Source: Bilabrum cf. latius (Eukaryota). Taken from it: 64,000 nt of DNA. The stretch lies in NCBI GenBank assembly GCA_965178125.1, contig OZ237776.1:434001-498000 (forward strand), read 5' to 3'. Shown here piece by piece: positions 64-62,462 of the stretch (position 1 is its first letter; each line of letters starts with the position of its first letter). The notes beneath the pieces were generated by a model, which saw only the letters and a list, made by a program, of their open reading frames with translations, was not told the origin of the DNA and ran no database searches. A program made the position numbers and the translations under genes.

Positions 64-1587
64 ATGTATTTCGTTGTTATTGAAACATCTGAATCGCAGG
101 GGACGATCGATGCAACGGGGGAGGGCGTGCCGGTGCAGGGCGGCGTTCCGGCTGCCAAGCATTCGGGCGGCTCCTCTTCCAGCGACGATGAATACGTCGT
201 GACAAACATTTAGAATACGACAGGATAGGAGGCCAAATCCAGGTGGCAGACCTGGAACAGGCGGGTATTGTCGAGCTTCGTGATGGTGATCGCAGCCAAC
301 CTGCTGCTGCTGTATGGCCGGCAGCTCGCAATCGTGCTGCTGATTTTCTTCCTGCAGGCAAACATCTACAGGGAGCTCGTGCTGATTTCCATCCGCCACG
401 ACGAGGAGCGGCAGCAGCCCACGTTCAAGTTTTTCTACTACTACTGGTTCATCGTGTGCGCATTCTTCTTCTACGTGCGCACTCTGCGGGAGCACTTCGA
501 GCCTCTCACCGAGCAGCACTGGGCCTTTCAGTGGGCGGTCAGGAACCACGTGCCGGTGTCTTTCTTCGCTTACATGTTCGGGATCGTGCTGTTCGTGGTC
601 TCCCTGCAGCGGCGCAGGAGGTTCGTGTACATGTTCACGCAGTTCTCCTTCTGCCACATGGCCCTCCTGGCTGTGGTGCTGCAGTCGACCTACCTGGCGG
701 CCAACGTGTTCAACGGGATAATCTGGTTCGCGGTGCCCTGCGGGCTGGTGGTGTGCAACGATTGCTTCGCGTACATCTTCGGTTTCTTCTTCGGGCGCAC
801 TCAGATCGTGCCCAAGCTGAGCAAGAAGAAGACCTGGGAGGGTTTCGCGGGGGCCTTCCTGGCCACGCTCGTGTTTGCCTGGTATTTCACCATGTTCTGG
901 GAGAGGGTGGAATGGGCGGGGATCAACCGAGTGGCGCTCTGTCCCTCCCGCGGGTTTCAGTGGGAGACGCCGAGCTGCGACCCACTGACCGTGGACGGGG
1001 GGATCCACGGGCCGAGGCCGTTCACGCAGTTCCACATCGGGCGGGCGCTGGACAACCACGTCATGCGGCCGCTGGGTGCGAGCTTCCTGCTTGGCTTCGA
1101 TTGCTCCGAGTTCCAGCTCCACGCTCTGGTGATGGCCACCTTCGCCAGCCTGGTGGCCCCCTTCGGTGGATTCTTCGCTTCGGGGGTGAAGCGGACCCTT
1201 GGGCTGAAGGACTTCGGGAGCTCTTTGCGGGACCATGGGGGCTTCACGGACCGGATGGACTGCCAGCTGGTGATGGGGTCTTTCTCGTACATGTACTCGC
1301 ACTACTTCATCCCGCTGGGGCTGCCGCAGCCGGTGGCGGCTCAGGCGCTCCTTCAGGCGGTGCTGGCGCTGCCGTCGGCGGATCAGGGGAGGCTTGTGCG
1401 GCGGCTGGTAGACGCGGTTGGCATGGACGGTGCGTCGCTGCAGGCGCTGTGCTCTGGTGTGCACGGCGCCACTGCGTTCTGGGAAGGGGCGGCGGGGGCG
1501 GGGGCGGGGGCGGGGGCTGCTGTGGAAGCCGATGGCGCTGGGGGAGTTGCAGCGGGGGCGGGTGCCGTGGGAGGAGGCGAATTGTAA
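64..1587 (+). CDS. CDS1: Phosphatidate cytidylyltransferase (CDP-diacylglycerol synthase), eukaryotic type; start uncertain
   Basis: Motifs KLSKKKTWEGF, FASLVAPFGGFFASGVKR, KDFG and HGGFTDRMDCQ. The frame extends upstream through TAGs at 211 and 226 to ATG 64, or to a possible intron acceptor at 99. Ends TAA. Confidence 0.93.
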
Positions 1588-1613
1588 TCAAAAAGGACAT
1601 TTTATTCCATAAT

Positions 1614-4600
1614 ATGAAGCGCTAGACTGCGTGAGTGCTCACATCTCGAGATCGGAAATTCGGAATCTCGGTTGACGGTTCGGCAACACATCACGTGACG
1701 GTGCTGCCCAACACTGCGATGCTGGGGGTGGGCGACCAAGTTGAAATATAGCGCCGCAGTGCATTCCTTGGCGACGACGCACGCAGAAAAGCAAAGTTGG
1801 CAGCAGACCGGGTTCATGCGGAGCACCCCAGAATCGCGATCGGTGTTCGCCGGTGGGCCGACACGCACCCGCCCGTCGAATTGCCGGCCGAGCTTGCGGC
1901 TAAGATATCGTACTGTAGGGATGCCTGGGCCGCTGGGCTGCGTAAGATTTTTCTTCAAGCGCCCATCCGACCAGTGGTTCCTGCTTCCATACGAACGAAA
2001 TGGAGCCCTGCCAGCCAGGCTGACCCGCCCACCTCTGCTGGTGATCCCATTGCATTTGGCAGTAGACTGTGTCTGCCGACATGGACTAATCCGGGAGCCA
2101 TGCAAGCTGTCGCTCAGTCGGAGCTTGGGCGTAGGCTCGCGGCTGGCGAGCAATCGAATGCGCAGCCGCCCACCGTATCGTGGATGCGCGAGGAAGTATC
2201 AGCACTGTCTCTGGTAAATTTTGGGAGGCAAGGTGAATCAGCGGCGACTCTCAAATCTGCGATGCAAGCCGGCCAAATCGGACGACCGATGCTCCCAGAC
2301 GAGGGCATGTTCCAGGCCGCGCCTGGGGGTGCTGCGAGCAGCGAAAGCAAAGTTGGGGGGAGCAATAACCCCAATCCACAATCTTCTTCTTCATCCTCAA
2401 GGTTTTTGCTCCCTATGCGCTCCATGGAGCCAGCGTCGTCCTCGTCGTCGTCCGCCGCGGCAGCAGCCGCCCCGGAGCCACCATCCTTTGACGGGATCGG
2501 CGCTGGCCTGCTGCTCGGTGCCCAGGGCCTTTCGCACGCTCTGGCCCTCTCAGAGATGGTGCTTGGCCAGAGTGGGGAGCGGGGGGCCAGGGCCGATGCG
2601 AATTAGGTGGTGGCGGCGGTGTCGGGAGCAGGAGCAGGAGCTTCTGCAGGAGAGCAGAGCGCAGGGGCAGCGGCAGGGGCCGAGGCGGGGGCACAGGAAC
2701 ACGAGGCCAGCGCAGCCCCGTCAGGTGCGCTGCAAGGCAATGCACCCACACCCCAGGAGGCAGGTGGCCCCCCTTCCCAAGCCCAGCCAGGGCCAGTGAC
2801 AGAGCCAGTGACAGAGCCAGGTGCCGCTGCCCCGCCGCCCGCTGCCCACGCCCAAGGTGCATCGCGCGATGGCACCGCTGCCCCCATCAGCGGGGGGCAG
2901 CCCACTCAGGACGACATGCGGGCGTGCACGGAGGTTGGTATGCCCGCTTCCAGCATCGCGGTCTGCCTATATCGCGCCATTGGCGGCGCCAGCCAGGTGC
3001 CCCCCTCCCAGGCAGTGCCCCTCTCCACGCGCCTGCAGGGTGGCAGACACAACCTGCTCGTGGCCTTGGCAAGCGACGACGAGCTGGACGCCCAGTTACA
3101 CAAGCTGGAGCTGAGGGCTTGCATCGGCCCCCTGCTGTGCCCGCCCCAGGACGAGCTGTTCTACATGGCCAGGAGGGAATGGGCCAAATAGTCGAGGGGC
3201 CCGCCGGACCTGAGGCTGCTGGAGGAGGTTGCAACAGCTGGGGAACAGGCCTTGAAAGCCATGCGGGAGGGCAGGGGGGAACAGGCTGAGAGGGCCAGGC
3301 GACAGGCACTGCGCATGGAGCTCCCCGGGGAGCTCCAGGAGGGTGAGGTGGTGCGGCTGGTGGGGGCCAAGATCCGGAAGTCGAGTGGGTACACACGGGA
3401 GACGAGGAGGGCGGCGCTGCGGGTGGTGCGGGCGGGGATCCAGCTGCTCCCGGCGACGTGTGCCGAGTGGTTGCACGTGCACGGACTATGCGAGGCGTTG
3501 GGCAACACGATCCGCAAGACGCCCAAGGAGGACGCGCTCGAGGAGATGGCCCTCGCATTCGAGTGCCTGTACCTCCTGGCCAGGCAGGGTCTCCTCCCCA
3601 CCAATAAGATGGGTGCCAGGGAACTGGCCCAGGCCCGCAGCAGGGAGCTGAGAGCCATCCGCGCCGCCCGCATGTCCCTCGCCGAGGCCAACAATCCTCC
3701 CAGCGCAGAGGAGGAAGAGAACGACCCCCAGTACATGGCCACGCTGGACGCCGAAGCTGAGCTCAGGCCAGAGGACATCGCGCACTGGGGCGCTGAGCAG
3801 CTGCCGTACGAGTCGGCTCCCAGGGAACAAGGGACCCAGGGGGCAGATGGGGGCCAGGGGCAGCAAGCGGCGCCCGCCCACAGGTTTGCCGGGCTGGACC
3901 CAGACCCCAGGGTGCAGGTGGCGGCGCTGGAGGAGTGCGGGCTGGGCCGACTGGGGGAGCTCGCGGCGCCCGCCTCGCTGGGGGGTAGGTTCCGCTGCCA
4001 CGTGGACGCGCACGCTTGCCTGGCCAGCACCCCGCAGCTCCTGGAACGGGCCTGCAACATCATCCGCGTGTGCCAGCGATAGGCGGCCAATGACCTGTCC
4101 ACTGTTTCAGCCGGGCCCAGCATGCATGGCATGAGGCTCAGAGGCAAGGTGATCGAGGGCAGCACCCCGATGGCGCGCCTGCAGTCGATGTGGAAGCAGG
4201 GAGCGGGCGATTGCGGGCTCAAGCTGCGGGAGTCGGCCACCTGGGCGCTGCGGATGATCCACAAGATGCTCAGGCCGGGGCTGGCGGAGAGGAGGAGGAT
4301 CGCCTCCAGAGGGGGCACGCTCTCGCGGAACGCGTCTCTGGAGGATGCCCTGGGCGAGGAGGACGAGGCGATCTGGACGGGTGGGCTCGGCATGGGCCAG
4401 CGGTTGCTGAAGAGGGGGCTGGGGAGGCACCTGCGGCAGCTGTCGACCGTACTGGACTGCGAGCCCGGGCCACTCAGGGTGTCCGGGGTCACATGCAGGG
4501 CACTGCGGTGCTTGTGCCGGATGTGTCGGTACGTGCCCGGTGCGTTTGAATTCGGCGTGGTGCGACAAGGCTTCGGCTGGTTCCTGCGCCGCGCCGTGAA

Positions 4601-6731
4601 GGAGTGCCAACCGGAGGGCATCGACCTCGTGTGCAGGGAGGCGGCCGCTGTCCTGAGGAGACCCGTGGCCGTGCGGCTGCTGGAGCGCATGCCCAAGCTC
4701 ATGGCCAGGCACCCGTCGATGAACGGGATCCTGAGGGTCCTAACGGAGGCGGCAGCGCGCAAGGCACCTCGTTTGGTGCGGAGGCTCGGCAGCTCGGCCG
4801 AGCGCAGGTCGCAGCAGCCCGCCCCCGGGCAGCCCCTGTGTCCGTTCGCCGCGCGGCTCCTCGATTACGTGGAGCGGCCCCGCCTGAGGTACATGGCGTG
4901 CATGCCCGCCCCCGATGAGCCGAGGCAGGAGGTCCTGCACCGGAGGCTGGATGCCTCCGGTGCCGTGCCGGTCAACAAGAAGGTCCAGCCCAGCGGTGCC
5001 GTGCGGCTTGACCCGGGCGTGCAGGCCCTGCTCGAGATACCCCCGCAGGGGCCCGGGGAACAGTTGGGGTCACCCATCCCAGGGGAGGCTGTGGATGACG
5101 GGATGCTCTACGCGCTGTGCTATGTGGAGATAGCCGTTCGGTGCTCGCCCAAGCTGGACATCGCCGCTGTGCTGAATCAGAGGTACGAGGAGGCTACGGG
5201 AGTGGTGGATGCAGGGGATGTGGAAGGTGCAGGTGCAGGGGCTGGTGCAGGTGCAGGGGCTGGTGAATCTGTCCAAAACTCGCCGGCCAGCATACGAGGG
5301 GCTGGCCCGGAAGCTGGTAGTGGTGGTGCACTGCATGGTGGTTCACTGCATGGGGGCAGTCCGGTGCAAGGGGGTTTAGACGGAGGTCGCAGGCTGTCAG
5401 AGGTGCACATGCCGCCCCCTGCTGCTGCTGCTGCTGCCACTGCCACTGGTGCAAGTGAAACGACTGGTGCATCAGCTGCACCTGCACAAGCGCCGGCACA
5501 AGCGCCTGCACATGCGCCTGCACAAGCGCCTGCACAAGCGCCTGCACAAGCGCCTGCACAAGCGCCGGCACAAGCGCCGGCAGCTGCTGCAGATCCTGCG
5601 GCAGGGCCGTCCCCTGAGGCACTGCAGGCTGCGCAGGAGGCGGTCGCAGCGAGCCTCGCTGCCCTTAGGGGTGCACCGCACGATGGTGTTGCGCTGGACC
5701 TCGCCCCAAGGGCCGGTCTAGGACACTCCAGTCGACATGGGGCCGCAGCGGGTGCAGTGCACGGCAGCGGGCCCCTGGACGACGATGTGCTCGACGGTGT
5801 GTACGGCCTATCCGGTCTCATGGGGGCGGAGGGAGAGGTGGAGGGCGGCAGGGAACAGCAGCAGCAGGCTGCAGGGGGAGGGGCAGGGAACAGGGCCCAG
5901 CATACGGCGGCTCCTGCAGCGGACGGCTCCGGCGCTGCAGCCGGTGCTGGTGCTGGCCCTGGCCCTGGTGCTGGCCCTGGTGCTGGCCCTGGCCCTGGTG
6001 CTGGTGCTGGTGTGGATGGCAGGGCGGACGCAGAGGGCAGTGCTGGCGGGAGGCCAAGCCCCACAGCCACGGACTCCACGGCGGATACAGGGCACGCGCA
6101 TGGCGAAGGGGGCAAGGGCAGCGCCAGCAGTGTGACGAGTGCCTCTGGGTCGTCGAGGGGGGAGGCCGAGTGGTTCCCCGAGCAGGAGGCGGAGGAGGTG
6201 ATGGCGGGGGCGGGGGTGTCTGCGGGGCAGGGTGCATCGCACGGCGGTGCCGCGGGGGGTGATGGCGGGGATGCATTCGACTAGGCGGTTGGGTTTGGCG
6301 ATTGGGGCGGGGCACCGGGCTTGGGGAACAACGGGGGAGGAGGGGACGGTGGAGGCGATGGTGGATTCAGTCTGGAGGGGCTGGGGATCGATGGGGGACA
6401 GGGGGAGGGTGGGGATGGTGCGGGTGGGTGGGGAGGGATGGGGGGCGACGATGACTGGGCCGGAGGTGGTGCAGATGCAGGCGGGGTCGGGGATGGGGAT
6501 GGGTGGGGCATCGGGGGCGACCAGGACTAGGGCTGGGGTGGGGGTGGGGAGAATGATGCCGGAGCAGGGGGCAGTGCAGGAGCAGACCCAGGTGATAGCG
6601 CGGGTCATGATGCCTGGGAGGCGCTCCTCCAGGAGAGCGAACTGCCGGGGTCTGGGCCGAATGCCATCCGGAGAGCGCCAGCCGAGCATGAGCCCACGCC
6701 AGAGGAGCATGCTAGGAATTCCACCCTGTGA
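1614..6731 (+). CDS. Large hypothetical protein (about 1650 aa) with helical middle region and low-complexity A/G/P tails
   Basis: ORFs 1797, 2607, 3252, 4122 and 6321 share one frame and are joined by TAGs (2604, 3189, 4080, 6282, 6528); ends TGA 6729-6731. Probable exon 1 is ATG 1614-1630 (contains TAG 1623) with a GTGAGT donor at 1631. CAG acceptors at 1759 or 1786 both preserve the frame. Confidence 0.75.
5477..5582 (+). repeat. 12-bp coding tandem repeat (APAQ)n
   Basis: About 8 copies of gcacaagcgcc(t/g). Confidence 0.9.
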
Positions 6732-6803
6732 ATGGCAGGTTCGTTTTCATGGTTTGATAATGGTATACGCATGTAGGTAGTTGCGACCTGTTTGTGGTGC
6801 AGC

Positions 6804-7220
6804 TTATGTTTCGCTCGAATCGCCTGCGCCAGATGCAGAAGCTGCCGCGCTGCTTGCAGCCGTCCCATCGTCCGTTTTTTCGATCCCAGCCAATTGAGCG
6901 AGAGTAAGACCCGTAGGTGGATTCTATTCCAGCCAATCGCTGCCCCTAATTGCCCCAGCCAGCGCCCGTACAAGACCTTCGAGATCGTCCTCGCCATCCC
7001 CTGGCTCACTTAGCGCCTTCTTCAGATCCGCGCTCGCGTCAGGCCCGCTCGACTCGGCTGAACGAGCTTCGTCTCCACTCACAATCTTGGCTGATGACAT
7101 GCCTTCGTCTTTCAACAGAACAGCAAGGCTGCTGGCCAAGGCTGAAGCTTCAGCGGCCTGCTTGGCCGTCAAGTTGGGCGCGCTGCTGGGCTTCTCTGCA
7201 TCTTGCGACACCGAGGCCAT
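6804..7220 (-). CDS. Hypothetical protein, 138 aa
   Basis: ATG 7220; reading through TAG 6924-6926 continues a compositionally similar A/S/D/E-rich frame to TAA 6804-6806. Confidence 0.6.
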
Positions 7221-7539
7221 GCAATGTTGTCGTCTTACTCAGCAAATTGCCAGCCGAAACAAGCAGATTCTAGTTTTATGCTGCACAAAATGGGTGGGTT
7301 CCCAATCGAATCATCACACACCACGCACACTTGGCGACAGCCGCGCAATCAGGTGATTCAGTGTGCAGAAGAAAGGACCAGTACGATTTGAATCAAACAA
7401 TCAAGTATAACCGGAGAGCCATTGTGCGATACGGCTGTCTGGCTGCTGCATGATTCTAATCATTGATCAGGCCGACCAATTTGTTATTGATTCGTCCAAC
7501 CGGTTTTGTGGTTCGATCGACTAAGAAGCAACTGAAGAT

Positions 7540-10266
7540 ATGGGAGCTGCAAACTCAAATGGCGCTGCCGATGCAGTGGGGGCCCCTACAGATGCAACTT
7601 CGCAATCTGGGAGGTCAGGTGCACGGAGCGACAAGGCTTCCAATATTGCCGCTGCTCTCGAGAGCAATCAAACGCAGCGGTACGTCCCGGGACTATAGAA
7701 TGCTGGGAACACATGTTTCAATAACGCGTTGCTCCAGGCACTGGCTGCCCTTCCACCGGTGCATGCCCACTTGCACAGGCTGCTGACTGCCTGGCAGCAA
7801 GCTGGCAAGTGCCTGTCCAAGCGCAAGCAAGAACAACAGGAGAGAATGGAAAGATTAGAGAAGATTGGCAGAGGGGTGGATATGGGCGAGGAAACTAGCA
7901 AGGCTGGCCCCGTAGACACCGATTCCGCTGTGGCCAATCTGGATCCCGTCAAACAGAAAGGAAGGGGAATCCGTCGATACGACGACATCGAAAGCACGGC
8001 GGGCCCTTTGGCAGGGGAGCTCCTCGGACTGTTGCAATCTCTCTCGCGGGTGAGCACGGCGAGCATGACCCCCAAATCCGGAAGCAAGGTGCTCCACCGA
8101 TTCGAGCGCTACTTCCGGTCTGGGCAGCAGCAGGACGTGCACGAGCTGCTTCTCCTGCTGCTGGCTACCCTGGGCGAGGATGCCGGGTCCTGGCTCCGAT
8201 CGTCCAGGTAGGATGAGGCATGGGCGGGCATCGAGGCACGACTAGGGGCAAGGGCAGGAGAGCGGTTGCAACCGGGTGCCGGCAGGAGACCTGCCGTGTC
8301 CGGGAGGCAGGGGGGCGTGGGTGGCGCCGCACAGGGCAAGAGGCGCAAGCTCGTGGCTGCACCGCAAGGCAGTGCATCTGCACCAGGCGGGGAGGACCCC
8401 ACGCCCAGAACACCCTCGAGCGGTGCAGGAGCAGGAGCTGGTGCTGGTGCTAGGGACCGCACGCCTGCAGGTCGTGCTGTCAGCGCGTCGATTTCCTCGC
8501 AGACCCGCAGCACTGACCATGGGTCCTCCTCCTCTTCCGTTCCGAGTGGGAGCAGGGGCACGGGTGGGACAGGTGGGTCGCGGGGGTCCCGAGGCACCAG
8601 GGGCCGGAGGGTGACGGTGCCCAGGCGGCTGGCGGTGCTGGTCGAGGAGGGTGCATCGCATGGTGAAGCACCTCAGTCCCCTGCCATCATGCCCGCGTCT
8701 GCATCAGCATCAGCATCAGCCCCCGGCTCGGACACGCTCGCCTAGGCCCTGGTGTCGCCCTTCTCACTCAGCTGTCTCCGGAGAGTGAGGTGCCTGCACC
8801 CGGGCTGCAAGGCGCACCACCCCACGTGGCACGAAGAGGAGATGCTGGCGGTGCAGGCGCACGTGAGGGAGGGAGGTGTGATGCCCGGTGCCTCGAGGAT
8901 GGGGGCCCGTGGAGAGATCATGAGGGCGCAGAAACTGACTGAGCTGCTGCGGGGCGAGCTGGAGAGTCGAGAGAGGCTCGAAGGGTACAGATGCGAGAGC
9001 TGCGGGCGCATGGGGGCGGAGAGGAGGCGAGTACTGGCGAGGGCGCCGAGGTGTCTGCTGGTGCACCTGTCCAGGGTAGGCTTCGGGGCCCACGGGGCTG
9101 CCAGCAAGAACATGAGCAGGGTCAACTTCAGGCCCGTGCTGGATCTCGACAAGGCCCTCCGGAGGAACAAGGGCAGGCACAAGAGCAGGCACACGGATAA
9201 GGGGACTGGGATGAGCGGCGCCTCGATGGATGAAGGGGCCCAGCCCCGCAGCGACAGCGTGTACGACCTGGCCGCTGTGGTGGTTCACATCGGGGGCGCC
9301 TATGGAGGGCACTACGTGTGCTACAGGAGGGCGCCTCGACGGGTGGGCATGGGTGAGGCTGCGCGGGCGGGGGAGGGGAGAGGGGAAGATGGATCCACCG
9401 GTGGATTGGGCCTGGGTGCTCCCGTCGGCATGTCCCGCATGCAGTGGGTGCGATGCAGTGACTCGAGCGTCAGGCCGGCACAGTGGAGCGAGGTGGAGAG
9501 GCAGGAGGCCTCGCTGCTGCTCTACTGCAGGCGGGCATAGCGCCCTGAGGGGCTGTGGGTCGGAGACGGGGCAGGGAGCCCGGAGCATGGAGTGCCCACT
9601 TGGAAGAACCAGCTCTCGGGTGTGACGAGTGCCAGCCGCGGCTGCACTCCGATAGCGGCATCGATGCCACGCGGATGGGAGCAGCAGTGGGACAGCGACC
9701 TCTGGGTGCTCCCCAGGGAACAAGACCAGGGGACCGCTGCTAGTGGACAGGATGATTCGGCGAGTGGTCATATGGGCACGGGGCAGCGATTGAACGGCCG
9801 ATCGCCTCACTGGGTGAGTGGGCTGACGACGACATACGAGAATGCGAGGAAGCTCAGGGAACAAGGGGTGGGAGGGGTGGGAGGGGATGATCCCCCCCAA
9901 GTGGTGGTGGTGCAGGACTGGGGGGATCTGGGCGAAGTGGAGGGTGCAGGAGCAGCGATTGGGGGAGCGAGCGGGCACACCAGCGGGGCGGCAGGGGCCT
10001 TGGGTGCCCCATCGCCGGCACCAGGGTCTGATGCATTGGCAGGTGCATTGGCAGGGGCAGTGGGGAGCGCTAGGGATGGCAGGAGGTCGCTGAGTAGAGA
10101 GACGCTGAGGGGGAGCACCCCAGGGGGTAGTGCCGGGGGGTCTGAGGGCGGGGATCAGGAGCAGGAGGTGCGATTCGGGGGAGGGGGAGAAAGAGGAGGA
10201 GAGCAAAGTGTGCCGAGAGTGAGGGGGCCAAGGCAGCCCGAGGACCCGGTAGCGGATGTGGACTGA
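7540..10266 (+). CDS. Ubiquitin carboxyl-terminal hydrolase (USP / peptidase C19), 908 aa
   Basis: Cys box GL*NAGNTCFNNALLQAL (TAG 7696), QQQDVHE, His box YDLAAVVVHIGGAYGGHYVCYRR, and WVRCSDSSV. All lie in one frame through TAGs 7696, 8209, 8743 and 9538; ends TGA. Confidence 0.92.
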
Positions 10267-10659
10267 GGACCCGGCAGCGGGAATTTTCATTTGTCTTTCT
10301 TTTCTATACCCCGGGGAGCTTGTGTCCCCAGCTACGGGAATTGCGGGTGGGAGGGGCGGAGCTCCCGTCGAGTCCTGAGCGTAATTCTCGCTGGCAGCCA
10401 CGGAAGCGGCAGTTTTCCGTTCTGGTCCATCTGCCCCGTCACTCATAAAATGGTTGGCACTAACGTCGTCTATTTTTCGGCAGATATATACCAGTGTGTG
10501 CAGTGATTCGTTTTATTTATTTTCGTCGTCACATGGCATCTGCTTTCTTTTTGAATTCGGTATTTTTCATCTGCTCTCCCATCGCAACCTGGTGAGGAAA
10601 GGAACAATTCTATCCGTATAATTAACGGTATACCTGGTCCAAACTGCCAGCCACCTCCC

Positions 10660-13600
10660 ATGGATACTTCGTGGATTTTTGAGGAAGAGGACGATGCTTG
10701 CCGAGACCAGCGAGTCCGACTCAGAACCGGCACTGAATCGAAAAGCCTACGTCGTACGCTGCCGTTATACCAGCTAGACCGACTTGATAAGATCCAAGCT
10801 CTTGTTGCGGGAACAAAGGGTCGGGAAGTCTCGAATTCGAAGCGGTCAGAGCTGGATTCCTCAAATACGTCTCATTCGCAGCCCCTTCGAGCTAGGCTAC
10901 CGCTGCCACGAACTGAGCCAGGCATGCAGGCTCCACAAACAGAATGCTGCTCAGAGGTGTCGGGATGTGCAGATGAGATGAGCCGGACGCTTGATTACAG
11001 GCATGCACGAGCATTGAGATCCGCTCAGACAGCCTTTCAAGCAATGTCGGGCAATTCTGCGACAGGGGGGGAATGGAACGCAATGTTAAGCAAGCCAAAC
11101 ACATCTACAGAGCTGACACCCAGCGATACATTGGGGTTCAGTGCATGCGACGCCTCCCGTCGCTGGCTCAAGACTGCAGCCGGCGCCCTCTCGCCCATCG
11201 AGTGGGAGGCATCGCCCGAGATGGAGGGCAACAGCCTAACGGACGGAACTTCTCCCGCCATATAGTGCAGTGTACCATACATGGCCGGGAGTAATGGCTC
11301 TTCCGAGTGCGCATATCATGATGGGGCCGATCGTGCCGCTGGCAGTGGTGTCCCACTGCAGCACCTGCTCCCAGTCGAGGCGAGCACAAGCACTGGCACT
11401 GGCACTGGTACTGGCACTGGTACTGGCACAGACGCAAATACAAGCACAAGCGCAAGCACTGTGGGCAGGGAGGCTCTTCTGAGGGCAGCGGTGGGCAGGG
11501 CTTTGGCACGGTGCGCCGAGGAGCAGGCCCTGCGACAGGCAGCCGAGAGGGAGGCCGGAGGACTGAGGGCGCGGGTGGACGAGCTGAGGGAGAGGGCGGA
11601 GGAGGGGGAGAGGGAGATGGGGCGGCTGCGGGAGCGGGGGGCGTGGCTGGGGCATGCACTGCAGGAGGCGCGCACGAGGCCGAGGATGGAGGTGATCGCG
11701 GGTACGTCATGGGCAACAGAGGATGACGATGAGGACGAGGGCGAGAGCAAGAGCGAAGGTCAGAGCGCAACCGGAAGCTCCTTGCCGGGCCGCAGCTTGG
11801 GTCAGTCGAATTGGAAGCACACAGAGTAGGAACAGGAACAGGAACAGGAACAGGAACAGGAACATGCCCTGCTGCCGCTGATCGAGGCGGCCCCGTCGCT
11901 TGCGGAACTTCGGGGCGCCGCGCTACACCAGGCCCAGCAGCAGGCCCTGGACGCCAGCAGCAAGTGCAGCGCACTGCAGCACCGACTCGAGGTGGAGCAG
12001 GCTCGGCACGAGAGCGAGATCGGCCGGTGGGAGGCCAAGGCAGCCGCCCTCGAGGCAGCCATGCAGCGGTGGGGCAGGGTGGCATCGAGCGCGGCTGTCG
12101 TGGCGGATGCCCGGGTGAGTGCTATGCAGGAGGAGGTGGAGGGTGCCAGGGGGGCGAGGGAGGCGGCAGAGGAGCGTGCGAGGGAGCTGGGTGCCCGGGT
12201 GGAATCCCTGGGAGCAGCGCTGGAGACTGCACGTGCACGGGGTGCGGATCTGGAGGGCCAGCTGCGAGAGGCGAAGGGGCAGCTGGAGGGGCTGCGGGCG
12301 ACTCTCCATGAGAAGGAGAAGCAATTGGTCGAGGAGAGGAGGGGGGCCAGGGAGGCCGAGGCCAGGGAACAATCCGCGGCAGTGCGGGCAAGAGAGGCCG
12401 AGGCTGCGCTGGGGGAGGCCTTACCGGCGGGAGGCAGGGTGCATGGGGCTGCAGTGGCAGTGGGTCCGGGCGGGTTGCGGCTCGGCGGTGACTGGGGCGA
12501 GGACCTTGGCTCTGTAGTGGTGGATAGGGGGTCAGTTGGTGCCTTTGGCTCGGTAAGGGGTCGGGTGGCGGGCCAGTCGGTTTCCCGCGTGTCTATGGCA
12601 AGCAGGCATGTGGACGGGTCTGCAGCGGTGTCAGGGGAAGCTTTGAGCGGGTCTAGCCCCGGCGTGCTGGTGCGGCAGCTGAGACGGGCGCTGGAGAAAG
12701 AGAGAAGGAGAGCAAATGAGGCAGAGGCGGCTCTTGGGCAGGGCAGCGCGATGGGCCTCCTCCGGAGCAGAGCCGCTGGAGGCTGCCAGGAGTGGCATGC
12801 GGGTGCCTCTCGATATCTCTCTTAGCAAGGTGACCCCGCCGCGTACAGACTGGCCATACCTGCTGGTCTGCACCATCGGTAGGTACATGTACAGGCAACC
12901 GTGTCCTGTGTGCCGCCAGCTGAGGATGCTGCCACTGCAAGGCGGGACTCTGTGCTAACCAAGGCGTACAGGGTCGGTGTGGTCAAGGTTGGAGCCCCTG
13001 CAGCGGGGCCGGATGAGAGCGGTGCAGCCAACACTTATCTGGCTCTTGGCATGTCTACGGCTCGAGTCTGGTCCAGCTCTGTGTGCGCTGCTGTGGGGCT
13101 GAAGAGCAGGCGCATTCACACAGCCTGGGGTGACCGGTCGGGACCGCCGCTATCAGGCATGACACTGACAGGTACGATTCCGACAGGCATCGCACATGCA
13201 GGAATTGATGGCGGGTAGTCGTGCAAGGGGAGCTTTGCACCTGCTAGCTGCATCGATACGACTGGGCCATACGTCGTCAGCACAGCAGAAGCAGGCACCC
13301 AGTGCCAGAGCAGCCACGGCACAGCAGAGGCAGGCACCCAGTGCCAGAGCAGCCACGGCACATCGGAGGCAGGCACCCAGTGCTGTAGTAGTGTGGCTGC
13401 AGGCGGCGGCATATCCGACGGGCTGCTGCTGGCAGACGACGACGAGGACCAGGACGTCACCAATGACAGTGCTAAGCATGGCACGGCAGACAGTATATCA
13501 GGATCTCAAGATCTTACCTATCACCACCCCTATCATTGGGCGGCAGCCAAGAAGAATCCTGAGGACCAGGACCAGGACCAGTACGAAGACGGGGACTACC

Positions 13601-14511
13601 TGGGCCTGGACGTGTCGCACTCGTCACACCTGAGCGGGACAGGAGCTACCTTCAATGAGTCCACGATGCTGTACACGCCCGCTCGCGGCACTGGCACTGG
13701 CACTGGCACTGGCACTGGCACTGGCACTGGCTCCAACCAGCGCAGCAGCGGGGCGGGGTCCCTCGCGCGACCTGCGGGCACCGGCCCTGGCAACCAGGAC
13801 GAAGGCATGGGCGCAGGCGCAGGGCAGCTGTCGGTGGGAAGGCCCGCTGGAAATAACGGTGCAGTGCATGGTAGTGCGCGGGAAGGTCTCGGTGCGCCAG
13901 TGGCACGGCAGCTTCGGCACCCTGAACCTGAGCGGGGCATGCCCAGCCCAGGGCTAGGGCTAGGGCGGCAGTGGGCTGTGCACGCGCTGCAGGGGTGCAC
14001 CGTGCCAGCTGCGGCTCTGCCGGCCCATGGTCACGGTCGGAACCAGAGGCAGGGCCAGGGCCGTGTGCCTGCACCTGGCCAGAAGACCATCCCAGGGACG
14101 GAGACTGTCTTTGGGCTGGTCTCGGTCGGGCACCGCAAGGAGGCTGGGGGAGGGGCAGGACCCGAGAGGGCGGACGCAGCCGGCCTCAAGAGGGCGCTAG
14201 AGGTGCAGAAATAGGAGAAAGAGGCGGGGATCAGGCGGTGGAGGGAGCTGGCAGCGCAGTAGGAGCTGGCGTGGGCCAGCCGATGCGCGGCCAGCGGGGT
14301 GCGTGGGGTGAGGGAGGGCATGGTGATCGCTGGTGCAGCGAGGGCGTGCGCGGGGCTTGGGGTGGGGACTGGCGCATTGGACGGAAGTGTTGTTGGTGGT
14401 ATTGATGGCGATGGTAGTGGTGGGGGAGGTGGTGGGGAGGGATGGGCGAGTGGGGAGCTTGTGGGAATGGTGGATCGATTGCTGCAAGCTTGCGGCGATG
14501 GCAGCAGCTGA
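10660..14511 (+). CDS. Coiled-coil, low-complexity protein, 1283 aa
   Basis: Six listed ORFs in one frame, joined through TAGs 11263, 11827, 12823, 12880, 13216, 14212 and 14260. E/A/R-rich heptad stretches at about 11470-12420. Ends TGA. Confidence 0.75.
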
Positions 14512-14619
14512 TGATACGATGGTTGCCAACCTGGCCGTACAGCGAGAAGCACGCCATACAGTGCTATAATTACAACACGTTTATTGCCATCACCGCGAAC
14601 CCAAAATGTACTATTCGAG

Positions 14620-15441
14620 TCACTGCGCCCCCCCGCTGCCCCCGCCCCCGCCGGCCTAGCTCCCGCTTGACTCTTCCTCCTCGTCCTCGCACGCGGCTTT
14701 GGGGAATGTGCGGCCCTCCCCCTCATCCTCCCGGGGAACGGGGAGGCCTCTGTACCCTAGCACTTCCTGAATCTGTGCGCTGGTGGTGGTCTTCTTTATT
14801 CTAAACTCTCCCAAGTGCTCCCCCTGGTCCGAGAAGAACTGGATGGTCGGTGGCTGCGAGTAGGGATGGATCTGCAGCTGCTCCTTGCTGTACCGCGGGG
14901 CCACCATCGAGCGGAACTCCTTGAGACCGGGGTAAAATTTAATCACACACGTATGGATTGGGGCCTTGATGAGTGCGTTCGAGGCCTATCGCCCCCCGAT
15001 GTGGGCCGCGAGGGGATCCCCTTCCTCCTCGTCGAAAAGGTGATCGCCCTGCAGCTGCTGCCTAGCGCGATCCTCTGCTTCCAGTCGCTCTCTAGCCTCT
15101 CGCTCTGCCTACTCAGCGTGCTATCGCGCAAGCTCTGCCTCTCTCTCCTCATCCTCGTCCGCGTAGTCGTCGTACACCACACCACCTCGTCGGTGCGAGT
15201 CACCGGCGGTCACAGACCCGTCTGCTCTTACTTCCATCGTATCGGCGGCTATCTGTGAGAACAAAACGATACAGGATATTTGTACCCGCGGATTTATCAT
15301 CGGAAAAGTAATGCCAAGGTGGCTCGACACGAGGGAATCGAATTTCTTTGAAAAAAACTTGATGCAAGCCAAGATACAACTTACCGCAAGGCCACAGAGA
15401 AGCACTAGTACTAAAAGATACTTCAAGCACTAAGACTTCAT
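14620..15441 (-). CDS. Secretory Sep15/SelM-like thioredoxin-fold protein (Cys form)
   Basis: ATG 15441 and signal peptide MKS*CLKYLLVLVLLCGLA. Phase-0 intron 15384-15253 (GTAAGT...TCACAG). Domain ALIKAPIHTCVIKFYPGLKEF...PPTIQFFSDQGEHLGEFRI...IQEVLGYRGL resembles Sep15/SelM. TAGs at 15430, 15121, 15109, 14986 and 14656; ends TGA. Confidence 0.62.
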
Positions 15442-17446: not shown

Positions 17447-17501
<55 letters not shown>

Positions 17502-27156: not shown

Positions 27157-27205
27157 CGACTCGGCTCGATGGCGTACTGAACACAGAGCCGTCGCCGTGT
27201 GCCTG

Positions 27206-45023: not shown

Positions 45024-47371
45024 ATGAAGTCGTATGGTAGCTTGTTGGCGTCTGTGCTTACTTTATGTGCAGTGAAGATATCACAGTCGGCGCCGCCACC
45101 GCATATTGTTTTCATTCTGGCTGGTGAGGATGGCTCCCACGATCTACGACACGCTGTCGTCTGAATACAACGCCTACTCCTTCCACGTTTCATGGCTTTC
45201 TTAAAACTCCATAATTTATATCAATGCAGATGATCTCGGTTACAACGATGTCAACTTTGAACCCGAGGGATCCCCGGAAGCGACTTGCGCGATACGCACA
45301 CCACATACCACGAATCTTGCGCGGAATGGGCTTGTGCTTGGACGAGCACACATCAACCCGATCTGCACGCCCACTAGATCGTCACTGATGTCTGGGTAAG
45401 CACTGGGTTTTTTTCGGGGTGGGGGGGGGGGGGTGCTACTCGCTTGCCATCCGTGCTACGCGTCATCGCCTGATCCTGATTAGGCCCAGCCTGTATCTTC
45501 ACTCGCTTCCGTCGCAGACGGTATCCAATCCACTTGGGTCTGTAGCACGGCGTTATCCTAGATGCGCAGCGCAACGCCGTTCCCTTGAACAACACGTTGC
45601 TGCCCGCCCGTCTCAAGTCGGCGGGCTACTAGACGCACATGGTGGGGAAGTGGCACTGCGGCTTCTACAAGGAGGAGTACGCGCCGTACAACAGGGGCTT
45701 CGACACCTGGTTCGGTTACTACACGGGCAACGAGGACTACTGGATGCACCAGTCGCCGGCGTGGCACGCGGGCAACTTCACCGGGCTAGACCTGAGCCAC
45801 GGGCGCCCGGGGCAGCCCCCGGTCCCTGACTTTAGCTGGAACGGGACCTACAGCACCAACCTGTTCGGGGGCGTGGCCGTAGACCTCATCAACTAGTTCG
45901 CTGACACCCCCCCTGCAGCCCGCGCCCAGCAGGGGGGGGACAAGCTCTTCCTGTACCTGCCCTTCGAGGCCGTGCATGGGGCGGCTTCATGCGACCCGGA
46001 CTGCTTCAACCCAACGGGGGATCTGCTGCAGGCCCCCCAGCAGTACATCGACCAGCAGCCCGAGGGAATGAACAGCGAGAGGCGAACCTTCGCTGGGATG
46101 GTTGGCGCGCTGGACGAGGCCGTTGGTAATGTGACGAGTGCGCTTAAGGCGAAGGGACTCTGGAACAACACGCTGCTGGTTTGGGTGAGTTGGACTGCCA
46201 TCGAGCCACTGCATCGAGCCATTTATTCCCAACCCGCGGTTCTCTGATGTCGCGGCATTGTTGCTTGATTCTGTCCTCACCCGCACCTCTGTATACCGCT
46301 TTGCCTCCGCAATGACTGCAGACAAACGATAACGGAGCCCCCGATTCACACTTCAACGGCCAGGCGCTGTCGAACTTCCCTCTGGTGAGAAGGAGAACAG
46401 TGTCATTCTTGCTATATTCCCGCCACACGACTTCCATTCGCGCTCGTTGCCATCCCGTCCCCCCCACCGTTTGCTCACCGATCGAATTGGATGTATTCGT
46501 CACTCCACGGTTTGCTCACCAATTGCAGAGAGGCGGCAAGGGCACTCTGTGGGAGGGCGGGCACAGGGCGCGCTGGTTCTTCTCCGGGGGATGGGAGGGG
46601 CTGGACCAGGTCGGTCGCAACTGGACGGGCATGGCCCACATCACGGACGTCCTTCCCTCCCTGGTGGCTGTCGCAGGGGGGGGGGCAAAGGGGGGCCCGG
46701 GGACAGGGCTGCCTTTGATGCTCACGGCGGACGAGTCTCACCGGTATGACCCCGCATCGGGGACAGACAGGCTCACGGGGGCCCCCGCTGAGATGCCGCT
46801 GGACGGGTATGACGTCCTGACCCCGGCCATGCAGGACAAGCCCAGTCCCCGAACGGAGATCCTGCACAACATTGACCCCATCGGGAAGGGCAGGGCAGTG
46901 CGGGTGGGTGAGCTCAAGCTCATGTGCGGGCAGGGGAATGCTGGGTGGGGCCCCAACCCCGACAAAGGGCTCGTGCCCGGGGCGCGATCCGGGTCCAAGC
47001 CAGACTCGTTGGGAGGAAACCAGCGCGCTTTGCCCCCCAGCAGCATGGCGGACCCCGGCGATTGCCACCTGTACAACATCACGGCGGACCCATGCGAGCG
47101 CGTGGACCTCATCGATAATCCCGAGTATCAGTAGGACCTGGCGAGGGTGCAGGCCAGGCTGCAGCAGTACGCCGACTCGGCTGTGCCCGTGAGGTACCCC
47201 CAGCCAGACCTCTCCTGCAATCCCAACCTGCCGGGCCGCACAGGCGCCTGGGCGCCGTGGGTGCCGGACAGCGGGCCCGGTAGCGACGAGGAAGCCGAGA
47301 TGCTGGGCCTGCCCTGGGCGCCTTCGCAGGTGTGGGAGCACAGCTCGAGGCTCTTCAAAAGCGAAGTGTGA
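45024..47371 (+). CDS. Arylsulfatase B-like sulfatase, secreted or lysosomal
   Basis: Five exons; introns 45124-45229, 45396-45517, 46185-46321 and 46385-46528. Motifs [64 protein letters not shown] and [11 protein letters not shown]. TAGs 45543, 45630, 45894 and 47132; ends TGA. Confidence 0.94.
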
Positions 47372-47434: not shown

Positions 47435-49633
47435 ATGGATTGGACGAGCCCGCTGGCCGTTGTGCTAGATGGAGCTGTGTGCATTATTGTAGGTATAGTT
47501 TTGTACCGGCTCCTGAGCACGTCGACTGTCATATTCTTAGGGGGTGTAGGCAGTAAAGCGGTGCAAACCTACAAACCGTCAATACTTGCTTTAGTAAGCG
47601 ACATTGCTCCGCACAGCCACAGATTTCCGCTTACTTTCACCTCAAGCATAGTTTGATTCGTGCATGCGATCCTTTTTTCACAGAACGGACACTGTCACAC
47701 TGTGTGGGGATTTGCTTGTCGGGATGTGACGCTCGGCAAGGATCCCTACACGCGGGAGCTAATCGAATCTAAAGGATGGCACCACCCTGGAGAGATTTTT
47801 AGTATTGATTGGCACCTTCCTGAAGGCGTGGGCCCGCACGATCCCCTGGCAGACTGTGGGGGGTCAACACCTGCCGGCATTGCTCTGGTGCTCGCCGGCC
47901 TTTCGGGTGGCTCGCAAGAGACGTACTGTAAGGCAGCCGTAGCTGCGTTGGCTTCCAAAGGCTTTCGAGTTGCAGTTATGAACGCCCGCGGTTGCGGGAA
48001 TACCCCTCTGACGGGGCCCACGACCTTCTCCGCGTGCTTCACGCAGGACCTGGACCAGGCTCTGCGGCTGCTGCACACCAGGGCGAGAACGAGGGGGGGC
48101 AGCGTGGTTGCAACCGGGTTCTCGCTTGGAGGTACCGTACTGGCGAACTGGCTGTGCGAGCAGGGAGCAGATGCTCAGGCGCTGCTGGCAGGGGCAGCCG
48201 TGGTGGGGGCCGACTACGACCTGGCTGCCAATAATAGGAGGCTGATGCAGCCCGTGTGCGGGGACTGCTGCGGCCATGGGGGAGGGAGTTAGATTTTGGC
48301 GGCAGGAGAGACTGATAGTGGTCTCGAAGAAGAGGGAGGGTATGAAACGGAGGCTGGTGGGGCGGCATCATTCCACCAGCAGGGCGGACCCAGTGGCAGT
48401 GGCAGGGCTGGGCGAGGGGCTCTGCCTGGCACCGCTTCTGGTTAGTGGGACACTGTCCCCATGCCGGGGACATGCCCCCAGGTGCCCCCTGACGCACTGT
48501 GCCTGGGGCCCTGCTGCTGGTGCCCCTGCGTGTACCACGCCGCCATGACCGGCTCGCTCCGATCGTACGTGAGGCGTCACGAGGATGCTTTCCGTGAGGG
48601 AGCCCAGAGCGGCTCCATTGCTCCGATCGACATGCAGGCCGTGAGGCACGCAAGCTCCATGCGGCAGGTGGCTGACCTGGTCCTGACGCGCTCCCACGGC
48701 TACAGGGACTGCGAGGCGTACCTGGCGCGGGGCACCACGGTGCATCGCATTGCAGCGCGAGTGTCGGTGCCCACGCTGCTGCTGCACGCCGCCGATGACC
48801 CGGTCACGCCGGCTGCCAATCTCCCAGTTGGCGCCGCGCAACGGAACCGCAACGTATCCGTGGTAGTTTCAGCGGAGGGGGGTCACCTGGGGTGGGCCAC
48901 GAGGAGCCCTCGGTGCACTGGATGGGGGATCCATTGGGGATGGGGCGGGGGCGGAAGGTGCAAGTCCAAGATTGCTTCGATCACTGGTGAGGTCTGCCGG
49001 GGTGCACTGCACGGTGGTGATGGCCCCTTGCTAGCAGCAGAGGAGGGAACACATCCCTCCGAATCATCCCCAGTGGAGGAGATGCCACGGACACCCCCCC
49101 TGGATGGAATCACCTGGGGGGAGGCTGTCATGGTGGATTACCTCTGGCGGTGCGCGACCGGTGACCTTGGCCCCTTCCCAATCCCTGGGGCCACTGCCCA
49201 CGGGCCCGAGGACAGGAAAGACCTGCGGGCCATGGGACTCGGAGTGAGACACCCCTCGCCTGGGAGGCCGGAGGAACCTCTCTTGGTGGCCTCCTCTCCT
49301 GGTTAGATGCGTCGCGAGGGTCCACCAGAGAGCTCGAAAGAAGCCCAGTGGCGATGCAGTGTGGCAGATAGCAGTGCGGTGCATGCACAGGCACAGACAC
49401 AGCGGGGAGAGGACGGCACGCAGCCTGCACTTGGACCACTTGAACTAGTTGGGAGCAGTCTGCTGCCAGTAGGGGAGGCAGACGCCCCTGAGCTGGCCTA
49501 GCATACTACTAGTAGGCCGGCGAGGCGAGCACGAGGCTCGAGGGCGGGCACAGCCACGTGTCTCGCAGAGAGCCTGGAAGGGCAACCGAACGTTCGTCCG
49601 AAGCGAACCCAGAGGACCCGGGTCCAGCAATAA
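47435..49633 (+). CDS. Alpha/beta hydrolase, ABHD1/2/3 (YheT) family
   Basis: N-terminal TM segment; intron 47594-47683. Motifs NGHCHT, GLSGGS, MNARGCG, GFSLGG (Ser), AADDP (Asp) and GGHLGW (His). TAGs 48290, 48443, 49304 and 49499; ends TAA 49631-49633. Confidence 0.88.
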
Positions 49634-59990: not shown

Positions 59991-60626
59991 TCGTTGGTGC
60001 GGGCGGCGGGCTTTGGGCTATCGTGGATAGAGGGTTGTTGGGGACAATAGGCACCCTGGCTCTCAAATGGTCAGGTTGTGGTTCATCAGGTGTAGGTAAG
60101 GCTGGCCTCTAGCTCTAGTTTAAACTACCTGGAAGCAAGTGCTGGAAGAAGGGCTGGCAGACACCCTGGTCGGCGAGCTGGCCTGGCGAAAAGTGGCTAG
60201 GCGAGCACGAAAATTGAGAGCGAAGGCAGCCATGTGCCTTGCATAGAGCCTGAAAGGGCAGAGAGATGATGGAGGCGCCTCAGCTCAAACTACGAATGCC
60301 GCCTAGATCTATCGGATGCCCGGTTCCAGCCGGTTCCAACCTCTGATAAGGTTTTAATCTTCTTCTTGAAAGTTCAACACGCTACAAAGGACCTCTTGCA
60401 AACCCCCCGCCCTCATCAGTCATTTCGCGCACGTTTCGCAGGCCTGGTGTCAGCACTCTACTGAGAAACCTTAACCACTGCATGCTCCGCGTTCACGACA
60501 TTCCCGAAGTTCTCGGGACTAAGTGAAATTGACGGCATCACACCATCCTCATTTCTGATACGGTTGCAACCGGGTTGCTTTCAGCCTGGCATCGTGTAGA
60601 GTAGACTAGACTCGAAATCGCTAAAA

Positions 60627-62462
60627 ATGCTATCAAATTCTTTTGTTGTTGTAGCACTGCTGTGCAGCTGCGCATGCGCTGTTGGCACTCGCAAGCACCT
60701 GCTCTTCCTTTCGATTGATGATATGGCTCCAATCTATGGGGAGACGTATGGCCCGTCGTGGATCGACACGCCTTTCATTGACGAGCTGTCCCGCCGCGGT
60801 GTTGTGTTTGATCGTGCTTTCTGTCAGGCTGCGACTCGTGGCGTCAGCCGCTCGAGCTTTTTGACAGGAAGGCGCGTTGATACGACGGGAGTCTACAACA
60901 ACAACGAGTGCTTTTACAAGACTGGCGGCAACTGGACTTCCCTTCCTCACTATCTAAAATCAGTAGGAGGATACATTACGCGTGGATCCGGGAAAATATT
61001 TCATCCCGGGGTCTGCGAAGGCCTCGCAGTAGGCGAAGACGCCGCCGCTTGGACTCAGCCGTACTACCACTCGCCGTGCCCGCAGCACGGTAGCTTTCCG
61101 TGCGAAGACACCGGTGATCGTCCTTACGGGTGGTTTTCAAACCAAACTGCGACAGAGATGGACACGGCCGACGGGCTCATCGCCACCACGACCATCAACG
61201 AGATCCTGCAGGCTGGCAAGGAAATCCAGCGGGAGCACGAGCTCGGGCTAGAGGCCACCCCGAGGGCTTTTTTTTGCGGCATGCACAAGCCGCACCTGCC
61301 TCTTGTCTCGTAGACGCGCTTCTTTGACCAGTATCCCCCTGGGGTCGCGCCAAAACCTCCGAACCCGCTTCCCCCCACGGACCTCCCCTCCATCGCGTGG
61401 AACCCATCCGGCGAGATTCGATCCTACGATGACGTCAGAGACCAGACGAAGGACTACGGGCCCAACACGACGTTTCCAGCCAACCTGACCGCCACCCTCC
61501 GGCGCGCCTATGCCGCGGCGCTCAGTGGCACAGACGAGCAGGTGGGCCGGCTGGTGGGCGCACTCAGGGCCGCGGGCATGGAGAATGACACTTTGATCGT
61601 AATGGCAACCGACCATGGGTGGTCCAGAGGTGAGACCGTGTACTGCACTGCACTGCACTGCACTGCAATGAGATGCAGTTTGTCTGCCAAGCCTGCCTGT
61701 CTGCCTTGACAGCACTCAATGCTGCAACGAATCGACCACCTCGCCTACCGCCCTAGCGCCACTTCCCGACACCTCACAGGGAATAACAACGAGTGGGCCA
61801 AGCACACGATCTTCCACGCCGCAGTGCACTCCACCCTCCTGATCGTGGACCCCTCCCTGCCCCCCTCCCGCCGAGGGGTCAGGACCTCCGCCCTGGCGGA
61901 GCTCATCGACCTGTACCCAACCGTGGTGGATCTGCTGGGGCTGCCCGTGCCAGACCTGTGCCCACACAACTCAACGGACATACGCGCATGCGTAGAGGGG
62001 TCCTCGCTGCGGCCCGTGCTGGAGAACTCCGACTACGACAGCCCCCCGCTGCAGGGCGCTGCAGTGGTCGGCGAGGACCTCCACGGAAGGAGGGCAGTCG
62101 GGGCCAGCAATCCGGGGAGCGGGCTCGTGCCCGGCCCGTCCACTGGCCTCGTGTGGAAGAACAGCACCTTCTCGCAGTGGCCCAAGGACGATGACATGGG
62201 ATACAGCATCCGCACGGACAGGTGGAGGTACACCCGTTGGGTGGGCTTCGATTCCCACGCGCGGCAGGGCAAGTGGGACGAGCTCAAGGGGGAGGAGCTG
62301 TACGACCAGCAGGAGGATCCCTTCGAGATCACCAACAGGGCGGGGGACCCCGCGGTGGCAGCCAAGAAGGCGGAGCTGTTCGAGCAGCTCAAGCTCGGGT
62401 GGAGGGCTGCCCTGCCCAAGCAAGCGGGGGCAGCGCGTGATGGTGCGCGCAAGCAGGTCTGA
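60627..62462 (+). CDS. Iduronate-2-sulfatase-like sulfatase lacking the catalytic Cys
   Basis: Signal peptide; motifs LLFLSIDD, FCQAATRGVSRSSFLTGRR, GKIFH, HKPHLP, DHGW..G...EWAK, MGYSIRTDRWRYT and ELYD..DP.E..N. Intron 61630-61779; TAG 61311; ends TGA. Confidence 0.9.

Follow-up and report, generated by a model that had tools for sequence, protein, structure and literature searches.

When stop codons take on new meanings in nuclear genomes, UAA and UAG nearly always change meaning together. We describe here a 64,000-nucleotide stretch of DNA, referred to below as the window (positions 434,001 to 498,000 of the forward strand of contig OZ237776.1, deposited as Bilabrum cf. latius), in which TAG alone of the three stop triplets occurs repeatedly inside conserved genes. 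Comparison with homologous sequences makes it very likely that this is nuclear DNA of a G+C-rich stramenopile related to the bicosoecid Cafeteria, in which UAG serves as an ordinary codon for glutamine and translation ends at UAA and UGA, as in codes of the NCBI table 15 type.

According to the lineages listed in PMC11687900, both UAR codons mean glutamine (table 6) in many ciliates, Ulvophyceae, Hexamita, Streblomastix and Amoeboaphelidium, and only a handful of lineages separate UAA from UAG. The closest to the window is the fornicate Iotanema spirale, in which UAG encodes glutamine, UAA and UGA remain stops, and the predicted mechanism is the same as that considered below, a tRNA-Gln with anticodon CUA combined with an altered eRF1 (Panek et al. 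2017, PMC5304391). However, Iotanema is described there as an anaerobic metamonad known from a transcriptome, whereas the window is of an aerobic type, carrying a gene for 2-oxoglutarate dehydrogenase E1 (OGDH), has 60% G+C and shows stramenopile affinities. Protocruzia tuzeti and two phyllopharyngean ciliate lineages also read UAG as glutamine and keep UAA as a stop (table 15), in what PMC11687900 presents as recurrent independent origins. The window differs from these in belonging to another supergroup branch, with no sign of ciliate genome features and with best matches in Cafeteria and oomycetes.

The remaining systems are less similar. Codes in which both UAR codons are glutamine share with the window the new meaning of UAG and, presumably, an origin from tRNA-Gln, but the window has no TAA in 3,987 codons whose frame is fixed by homology, and has a TAA at a conserved C-terminus (both described below). 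Other changes that set UAG apart from UAA are those of the rhizarian exLh (leucine), Scotinosphaera (serine) and Oligohymenophorea sp. PL0344 (UAA as lysine, UAG as glutamate), as listed in PMC11687900; the window resembles them in this separation, but its evidence favours glutamine. Stop triplets are also translated inside genes in Condylostoma and the karyorelicts (10.1101/2022.04.12.488043), where, according to that report, all stops or the UAR codons keep a positional role as terminators, whereas in the window UAG alone is affected. An initial annotation of this DNA, made from the sequence alone, had named Iotanema, the rhizarian and some phyllopharyngean ciliates as the known UAG-only cases. 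That list was roughly right, but it omits Scotinosphaera (serine), Protocruzia tuzeti (glutamine) and the oligohymenophorean ciliate, all of which appear in PMC11687900.

In-frame UAG within conserved genes

We counted 79 in-frame TAGs among 15,207 codons, spread across 21 open reading frames (ORFs) or exons with coding signal. The initial annotation had arrived by hand at about 80 in about 20 genes, with 12 in a MINDY-3/4 deubiquitinase and 10 in an ankyrin-repeat protein, figures that agree with ours; we count four in a USP30-like ubiquitin hydrolase and one in OGDH. The longest stop-to-stop ORF of the standard code has 818 codons, and reading TAG as sense gives ORFs of 2155, 1698, 1318, 1183 and 1078 codons. 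Length is not decisive, however, because long ORFs are also numerous when TGA is read as sense, in fact more numerous (33 of at least 500 amino acids, against 20 with TAG as sense), and we dropped it as decisive evidence.

The decisive test was confined to spans whose frame is fixed by Pfam or homologue matches on both sides, comprising 3,987 codons in 10 genes. In frame, these spans contain 18 TAGs, no TAA and no TGA. The same DNA read in frames +1 and +2 contains 17 and 14 TAGs, 6 and 11 TAAs, and 80 and 58 TGAs (31, 17 and 138 in total; p = 4.3e-13, Fisher's exact test of in-frame against out-of-frame stop triplets). Out of frame, TGA is the most frequent stop triplet of this G+C-rich DNA, and both TAA and TGA are excluded from the frame, although for TAA alone the rarity of that triplet here leaves the test with modest power. 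The density of TAG in frame equals that out of frame, and TAG is therefore not selected against. The earlier statement that intact genes have no internal TAA or TGA holds for these homology-bounded spans; for whole ORFs it is circular, because they were delimited by TAA and TGA.

Several of the TAGs are located inside conserved motifs. The single in-frame TAG of OGDH (33134-33136, minus strand, codon 266) lies in YEYMHI-TAG-DRNKCNW, and that at 26211-26213 (codon 219) of an AAA_35/ATPase_2-like ORF (25557-26912, plus strand), which also carries TAGs at codons 32, 199 and 381, lies in G-TAG-PWLVNR. Others fall in the Cys box of the ubiquitin hydrolase (TAG 7696, the first of its four) and in a GL-TAG-H motif of an arylsulfatase (TAG 45543-45545). 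TAGs are evenly spread along the ORFs (Kolmogorov-Smirnov p 0.25), and TAG and CAG are followed by similar bases, so the TAGs have no read-through context. As a control, an intact standard-code ORF of at least 800 amino acids was present in 76 of 80 metagenome OGDH loci. The in-frame use of UAG within conserved genes is thus real and confirmed. The proposal of the initial annotation that UAG is a sense codon is upheld by the 18 in-frame TAGs of the homology-bounded spans together with the codon exchanges described next.

Glutamine as the probable meaning of UAG

OGDH is encoded on the minus strand by a single ORF of 1078 codons (30695-33931) with four Pfam domains and at least 120 homologues. 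A scan of metagenome contigs with its protein yielded a 3.8 kb contig of 55% G+C, L001, whose OGDH is identical to that of the window at 733 of 868 residues (84%). The one TAG of the window's OGDH aligns to CAG in L001, and the two in-frame TAGs that L001 has of its own both align to CAG in the window, so that TAG is paired with CAG at three of three sites. In 120 deeper homologues other residues dominate these three columns; glutamine accounts for 7 of 120 at one of them and is not among the eight commonest listed residues at the other two. As aligned, the three sites are glutamines specific to this lineage, written as CAG in one organism and as TAG in the other, the hallmark of a synonymous transition. 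The column of the window's own OGDH TAG is variable in the deeper homologues (P 39, A 35, L 14, S 12, Q 7), and it was dropped as evidence on the residue for that reason.

A THOC7-like gene (34423-35157, plus strand) can also be aligned to L001. It is syntenic with that contig, its Pfam THOC7 match (E 3e-5) is below cut-off, and the orthologue alignment indicates a 90-nucleotide intron of the GT..AG type at 34533-34622. It has in-frame TAGs at 34669-34671 and 34939-34941 and one more near its 3' end. In a stretch that is 60% identical, TAG 34669 aligns to CAA (glutamine) and TAG 34939 to GAT (aspartate). Across both orthologous genes, TAG therefore pairs with CAG or CAA at four of five sites.

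Other genes provide single columns. In the AAA_35-like ORF, codon 219 stands opposite Q in 14 of 14 homologues. Codon 199 faces E in 13 of them and Q in the remaining one, which is the closest, and codon 32 faces K in 9 of 14 and N in the closest. Against 1fsu (human ARSB), codons 22, 51 and 139 of the arylsulfatase align to Q, T and N, respectively, and codon 283 of an iduronate-sulfatase aligns to a P of a solved structure. Against USP30 structures in the PDB, codon 58 of the ubiquitin hydrolase faces V or L, and codon 672 faces a Q of 5gvi (zebrafish USP30). PDB searches gave no match for a DHHC palmitoyltransferase ORF, and for an alpha/beta-hydrolase ORF gave weak matches that do not cover its TAGs.

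Taking the closest homologue at each of the 14 alignable TAG sites in this one window, Q is found at eight (binomial p 4e-8 at a background of 4.5%), and no other residue is found more than twice. This tally leaves out codon 381 of the AAA-like ORF (one homologue has K and 13 have gaps, and the tail that holds it scores as non-coding), codons 69 and 74 of a CDP-diacylglycerol synthase gene (CDS; opposite Q and A of Cafeteria in a weak alignment of an N-terminus that is not conserved) and codons 748, 932 and 933 of MINDY (gaps against P0260, a protein of a relative). Adding codon 381 and the two CDS codons brings Q to 9 of 17. The orthologue codon swaps and the invariant Q column bear out the initial assignment of UAG to glutamine. 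In this window TAG makes up about one glutamine codon in ten.

Termination at UAA and UGA

MINDY (39203-42754, plus strand, the feature running from 39251; Pfam E 3e-40, a match that reaches the end of the model) ends at a TAA (42752-42754) that sits five residues past the last position of the Pfam model, and the relative's P0260 ends at the same ...PWL C-terminus. OGDH ends at a TGA (30695-30697), and its homologues match to residues 1076-1078. The handful of C-termini that can be checked by homology all end at TAA or TGA and none at TAG. These conserved ends, with the absence of either triplet from the frame, agree with the earlier claim that UAA and UGA remain stops. A code in which both UAR codons mean glutamine (table 6) was ruled out by the absence of in-frame TAA and by the TAA at the conserved C-terminus of MINDY.

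Authenticity of the TAGs and their retention in spliced contigs

Seven of the eight public runs listed for window positions 1-10000, which come from three studies, contain at least part of the window. Four runs that span the three studies (X1, X5, X6 and X7) were compared with positions 1-20000, and no differing letter and no insertion or deletion was found. Coverage by X1 is even and without joints at introns. In X5, X6 and X7, which come from the two other studies, depth is strongly gene-dependent (in X5, 73 on the CDS gene against 1-3 in the bins at 10.0-11.3 kb), and all three contain a joint from 15252 to 15385 that is absent from X1. The joint skips 132 nucleotides with the ends CT..AC, that is, GT..AG on the minus strand. 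Given this spliced joint and the uneven depth, we take X5, X6 and X7 to derive from RNA.

Of the 27 in-frame TAGs in positions 1-20000, all are covered by X1 and 19 by the listed pieces of X5-X7, with no differences. A spliced X5 contig spans a two-exon gene from its ATG (15441) to its TGA (14620) and retains all five of its in-frame TAGs. Because spliced and unspliced contigs agree with the window, assembly error, location in introns and RNA editing are excluded for the covered sites. The initial annotation had named removal or editing of TAG in mRNA, and an assembly error that conceals CAG, as grounds for doubt. Neither appears: contigs that carry the GT..AG joint, although their RNA label is a guess, keep the TAGs, and the four runs have no base difference from the window over positions 1-20000. 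The intron lengths of 90-170 nucleotides given at that time are compatible with the 132 nucleotides of the spliced contig and the 90 nucleotides of the orthologue alignment.

Alternative explanations

UAG is thus decoded as sense, most probably as glutamine. Several observations weigh against so simple an account. The decoding as glutamine rests on sequence comparison, and six of the 14 aligned sites have other residues (N, N, T, P, V and D), all six in variable columns. A test of neighbour composition was compatible with glutamine but did not single it out: Q is enriched 1.49-fold beside TAG, close to the 1.55-fold of Q itself, but N, D and W behave similarly, and the likelihood of the neighbour profile puts W, Q and D together. 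A tRNA scan found no tRNA gene within the window, where there is also no Rfam match and no rRNA, and the gene for eRF1 is not among the window's genes. The RNA labels of X5-X7 are automatic guesses, and X5 is labelled "probably DNA". The placement of the organism, described below, is based on two proteins and one single-gene tree. Finally, by codon usage the 43-82 codons that follow the last TAG look non-coding in five ORFs (1635-6731, 10555-14511, and the ankyrin, AAA-like and hydrolase ORFs), so that UAG may still act as a stop at some sites, or these gene models may be in error. The tails are the basis for an ambiguous code, in which UAG is glutamine within genes yet ends translation at some 3' ends by context: they show no frame-0 signal, and their lengths are near the approximately 61 codons expected before a chance TAA or TGA. 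However, five other short tails score as coding (orf16104, orf27404, ARSB2 and orf57300 among them), and pooled short tails still favour frame 0 (0.044 against -0.071 and -0.152). Every C-terminus that homology can check lies at TAA or TGA, TAGs are uniformly placed along ORFs, low-complexity tails score noisily and unrecognised introns would look alike. We regard an ambiguous code as unlikely.

The other alternatives are less probable again. Near-cognate read-through of UAG by normal tRNA-Gln (CUG or UUG) with an eRF1 that reads UAG poorly would need no dedicated suppressor tRNA. Normal tRNA-Gln is described as reading UAG in standard-code organisms (PMC13192750), and there is no tRNA(CUA) in the window, though none could be expected from the window alone. 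Against this, TAGs are numerous, with up to 12 in one gene, and have no read-through context, and even 90% read-through per site would leave less than 30% of MINDY at full length. A tRNA-Gln(CUA) reads UAG in Tetrahymena, and one is predicted, not demonstrated, for Iotanema in PMC5304391. We think such read-through very unlikely. It is more doubtful still that UAG is sense for another residue, whether leucine as in the rhizarian exLh, serine as in Scotinosphaera, glutamate, lysine or pyrrolysine. Cafeteria-clade sequences do have L in the column of the window's OGDH TAG, and the AAA-like ORF faces mostly K at codon 32 and E at codon 199, but the pairing of TAG with CAG or CAA, the column with Q throughout and the failure of any other residue to recur more than twice all point to glutamine. 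Least credible of all is artefact or decay in the form of assembly error, pseudogenes, unspliced introns or U-to-C RNA editing, which has nothing in its favour beyond the usual presumption that stop codons end translation. Four runs of three studies give an identical sequence, the homology-bounded codons contain no TAA, TGA or frameshift, TAGs occur within invariant motifs and are kept in contigs from which a GT..AG intron has been removed, and a second organism (L001) repeats the pattern at sites of its own. We rejected all four forms on these grounds.

If UAG is an ordinary glutamine codon, it would be read by a tRNA-Gln with anticodon CUA, one base from tRNA-Gln(CUG), that ignores UAA. According to PMC5304391, CUA is the only anticodon that reads UAG while ignoring UAA, and a single mutation separates tRNA-Gln(CUG) from a tRNA-Gln of this kind. 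Recognition of UAG by eRF1 would have been lost or weakened. The same source states that eRF1 must lose its affinity for UAG, gives GTS, NIKS and YxCxxxF as its stop-recognition motifs, and reports the change T32G in the GTS motif of Iotanema. TAG would then have built up by C-to-T transitions at CAG codons.

Organism, relatives and novelty

The two proteins searched against named sequences both have Cafeteria roenbergensis as their best named match. OGDH is 60% identical to the Cafeteria protein, against 53-55% for oomycetes and 52-54% for plants; CDS is 52% identical, against 39-43% for oomycetes and 40-41% for labyrinthulomycetes. In a quick maximum-likelihood tree of OGDH (43 rows) the window and L001 group together with a support of 100. 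They are sister to Cafeteria and three unnamed sequences (SH-aLRT 99), within a larger group that includes the oomycetes. By these comparisons the organism is apparently a stramenopile near bicosoecids, and nothing finer. The match to Cafeteria in both proteins and the grouping in the tree fit the earlier impression that it is neither a ciliate nor a fornicate. Cafeteria proteins are annotated at full length under the standard code, and the code change therefore post-dates that split.

Relatives at 84-89% protein identity are represented in metagenome data by L001 and by the proteins P0125, P0260 and P0268. L001 is syntenic with the window, with the THOC7-like gene upstream of OGDH on the opposite strand. 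The two genes lie head to head in both (L001:1-1171 and window 34423-34983), and the THOC7-like gene of L001 consists of two conserved parts in different frames. P0268 ends exactly before the TAG at codon 97 of the window's MINDY, which suggests that this TAG is common to the relative and the window. That L001 has TAGs of its own elsewhere and that P0268 stops at a shared one suggests that UAG recoding is a trait of the clade.

The code itself is already known (table 15), and what is new is apparently the lineage, with a further, independent origin in a new supergroup branch and in a G+C-rich genome. No stramenopile is among the UAG-recoded lineages listed in PMC11687900. In open-access text we found no nuclear code change for stramenopiles, bicosoecids, Opalozoa or marine stramenopiles, a search that leaves a prior description possible, and the titles and abstracts that combine "bicosoecid" with "genetic code" deal mainly with organelle genomes, none naming a nuclear code change. 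The novelty of the stramenopile case is plausible but unproven. On balance we lean towards a first nuclear stop-codon reassignment in Stramenopiles: an independent UAG-only change to glutamine, common to at least two related free-living organisms (those of the window and of L001), in a G+C-rich genome that excludes AT-driven codon loss, and in which UAG may still stop some genes. A further independent case helps to test why the coupling of UAA and UAG exists and how it breaks, and this one falls in a genome of 60% G+C, where TAG is no rare triplet.

There are practical consequences as well. In a public protein library the window's MINDY stands as three fragments, each 100% identical to it (P0259, P0261 and P0262; residues 545-747, 774-931 and 970-1183) and each beginning or ending at a TAG, and a relative's CDS stands there as an N-terminally truncated protein. 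Gene callers that apply the standard code cut genes at TAG, so for as long as table 15 is not used, this lineage will have faulty annotations, orthologue sets and metagenome bins. The organism is apparently present in runs of three studies and may be accessible for work on its tRNAs, eRF1 and proteome.

Two further metagenome OGDH loci differ from that of the window. One (L040:1-2655; 54% G+C) is unrelated, with a protein about 48% identical to the window's, and has four in-frame TAGs and a TAA end. Its four TAG columns contain Q in 120 of 120 homologues, E in 79 with Q in 27, K in 116, and R in 85. This may be another organism with UAG reassigned, whichever the residue. The other (L038:1-3315) is 55% identical to L040, and its ORFs reach at most 163 codons by the standard code, or 174 if TAG is read through, which suggests many introns or a code that affects other stops.

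Gene content of the window

The window has 60.3% G+C and contains long, mostly intron-poor eukaryotic genes, densely placed on both strands. The CDS gene (7-1587, plus strand; Pfam CTP_transf_1, E 2.6e-52) carries two TAGs in frame (211-213 and 226-228) and terminates at a TAA (1585-1587). Its protein is 89% identical to P0125 of a relative, and its alignment with the Cafeteria protein P0127 reaches upstream of codon M93, through a W..WN.R motif. The candidate start, ATG 64-66, is the only in-frame ATG before this motif; the next ATGs past base 100, at 110 and 188, are out of frame. X5, X6 and X7 contigs cover the span 100-1478 with no differences, and all start exactly at base 100, downstream of ATG 64-66.

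Downstream of CDS on the plus strand is a long low-complexity ORF of 1698 codons without a family match (1635-6731), which has six in-frame TAGs. Its codon-usage score favours frame 0, and an X5 contig spans 1701-5543 without a joint or a difference. It is followed by the USP30-like ORF (7525-10266; Pfam UCH, E 5.9e-36), with TAGs at 7696, 8209, 8743 and 9538, and by a coiled-coil, low-complexity ORF of 1318 codons with seven in-frame TAGs (10555-14511). The two-exon gene with five in-frame TAGs lies on the minus strand (14620-15441), with its ATG at 15439-15441, its intron at 15253-15384 and its TGA at 14620-14622. It has a weak Sep15/SelM-like domain (Pfam E 0.0016, below cut-off). Its protein looks secreted, and there is no in-frame TGA where proteins of the Sep15/SelM type can carry selenocysteine.

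The ankyrin-repeat ORF (18117-24584, plus strand; Ank_2, E 5e-14) has 2155 codons and ends at TAA. The DHHC palmitoyltransferase ORF (37404-38432, minus strand; Pfam E 4.9e-9) has three in-frame TAGs. On the plus strand, the arylsulfatase B-like gene (45480-47371; Pfam Sulfatase, E 1.6e-24) consists of at least two ORF pieces (45480-46247 and 46316-47371) with four in-frame TAGs. The alpha/beta-hydrolase ORF (47657-49633, plus strand) also has four and ends at TAA, and its gene model is uncertain past approximately codon 420. The iduronate-2-sulfatase-like gene (60465-62462, plus strand) is in two ORF pieces, and the TAG at codon 283 of the first piece adjoins HKPHLP. Further genes of the window named by Pfam encode a DCC1-like oxidoreductase and an ion-transport protein.

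Between 50000 and 57300 there are approximately 7 kb of lower G+C (40-55%, against 60% overall) that contain no ORF longer than about 210 codons under any reading, and none of the three ORFs tried from this region has a Pfam match. Every assembly breaks at short repeats located at 1479-1526, 5408-5460, 13341-14007 and 17438-17529, which are probably simple-sequence repeats common across the genome. Among these sites, one X1 bin has a depth of 500, against approximately 13 elsewhere.

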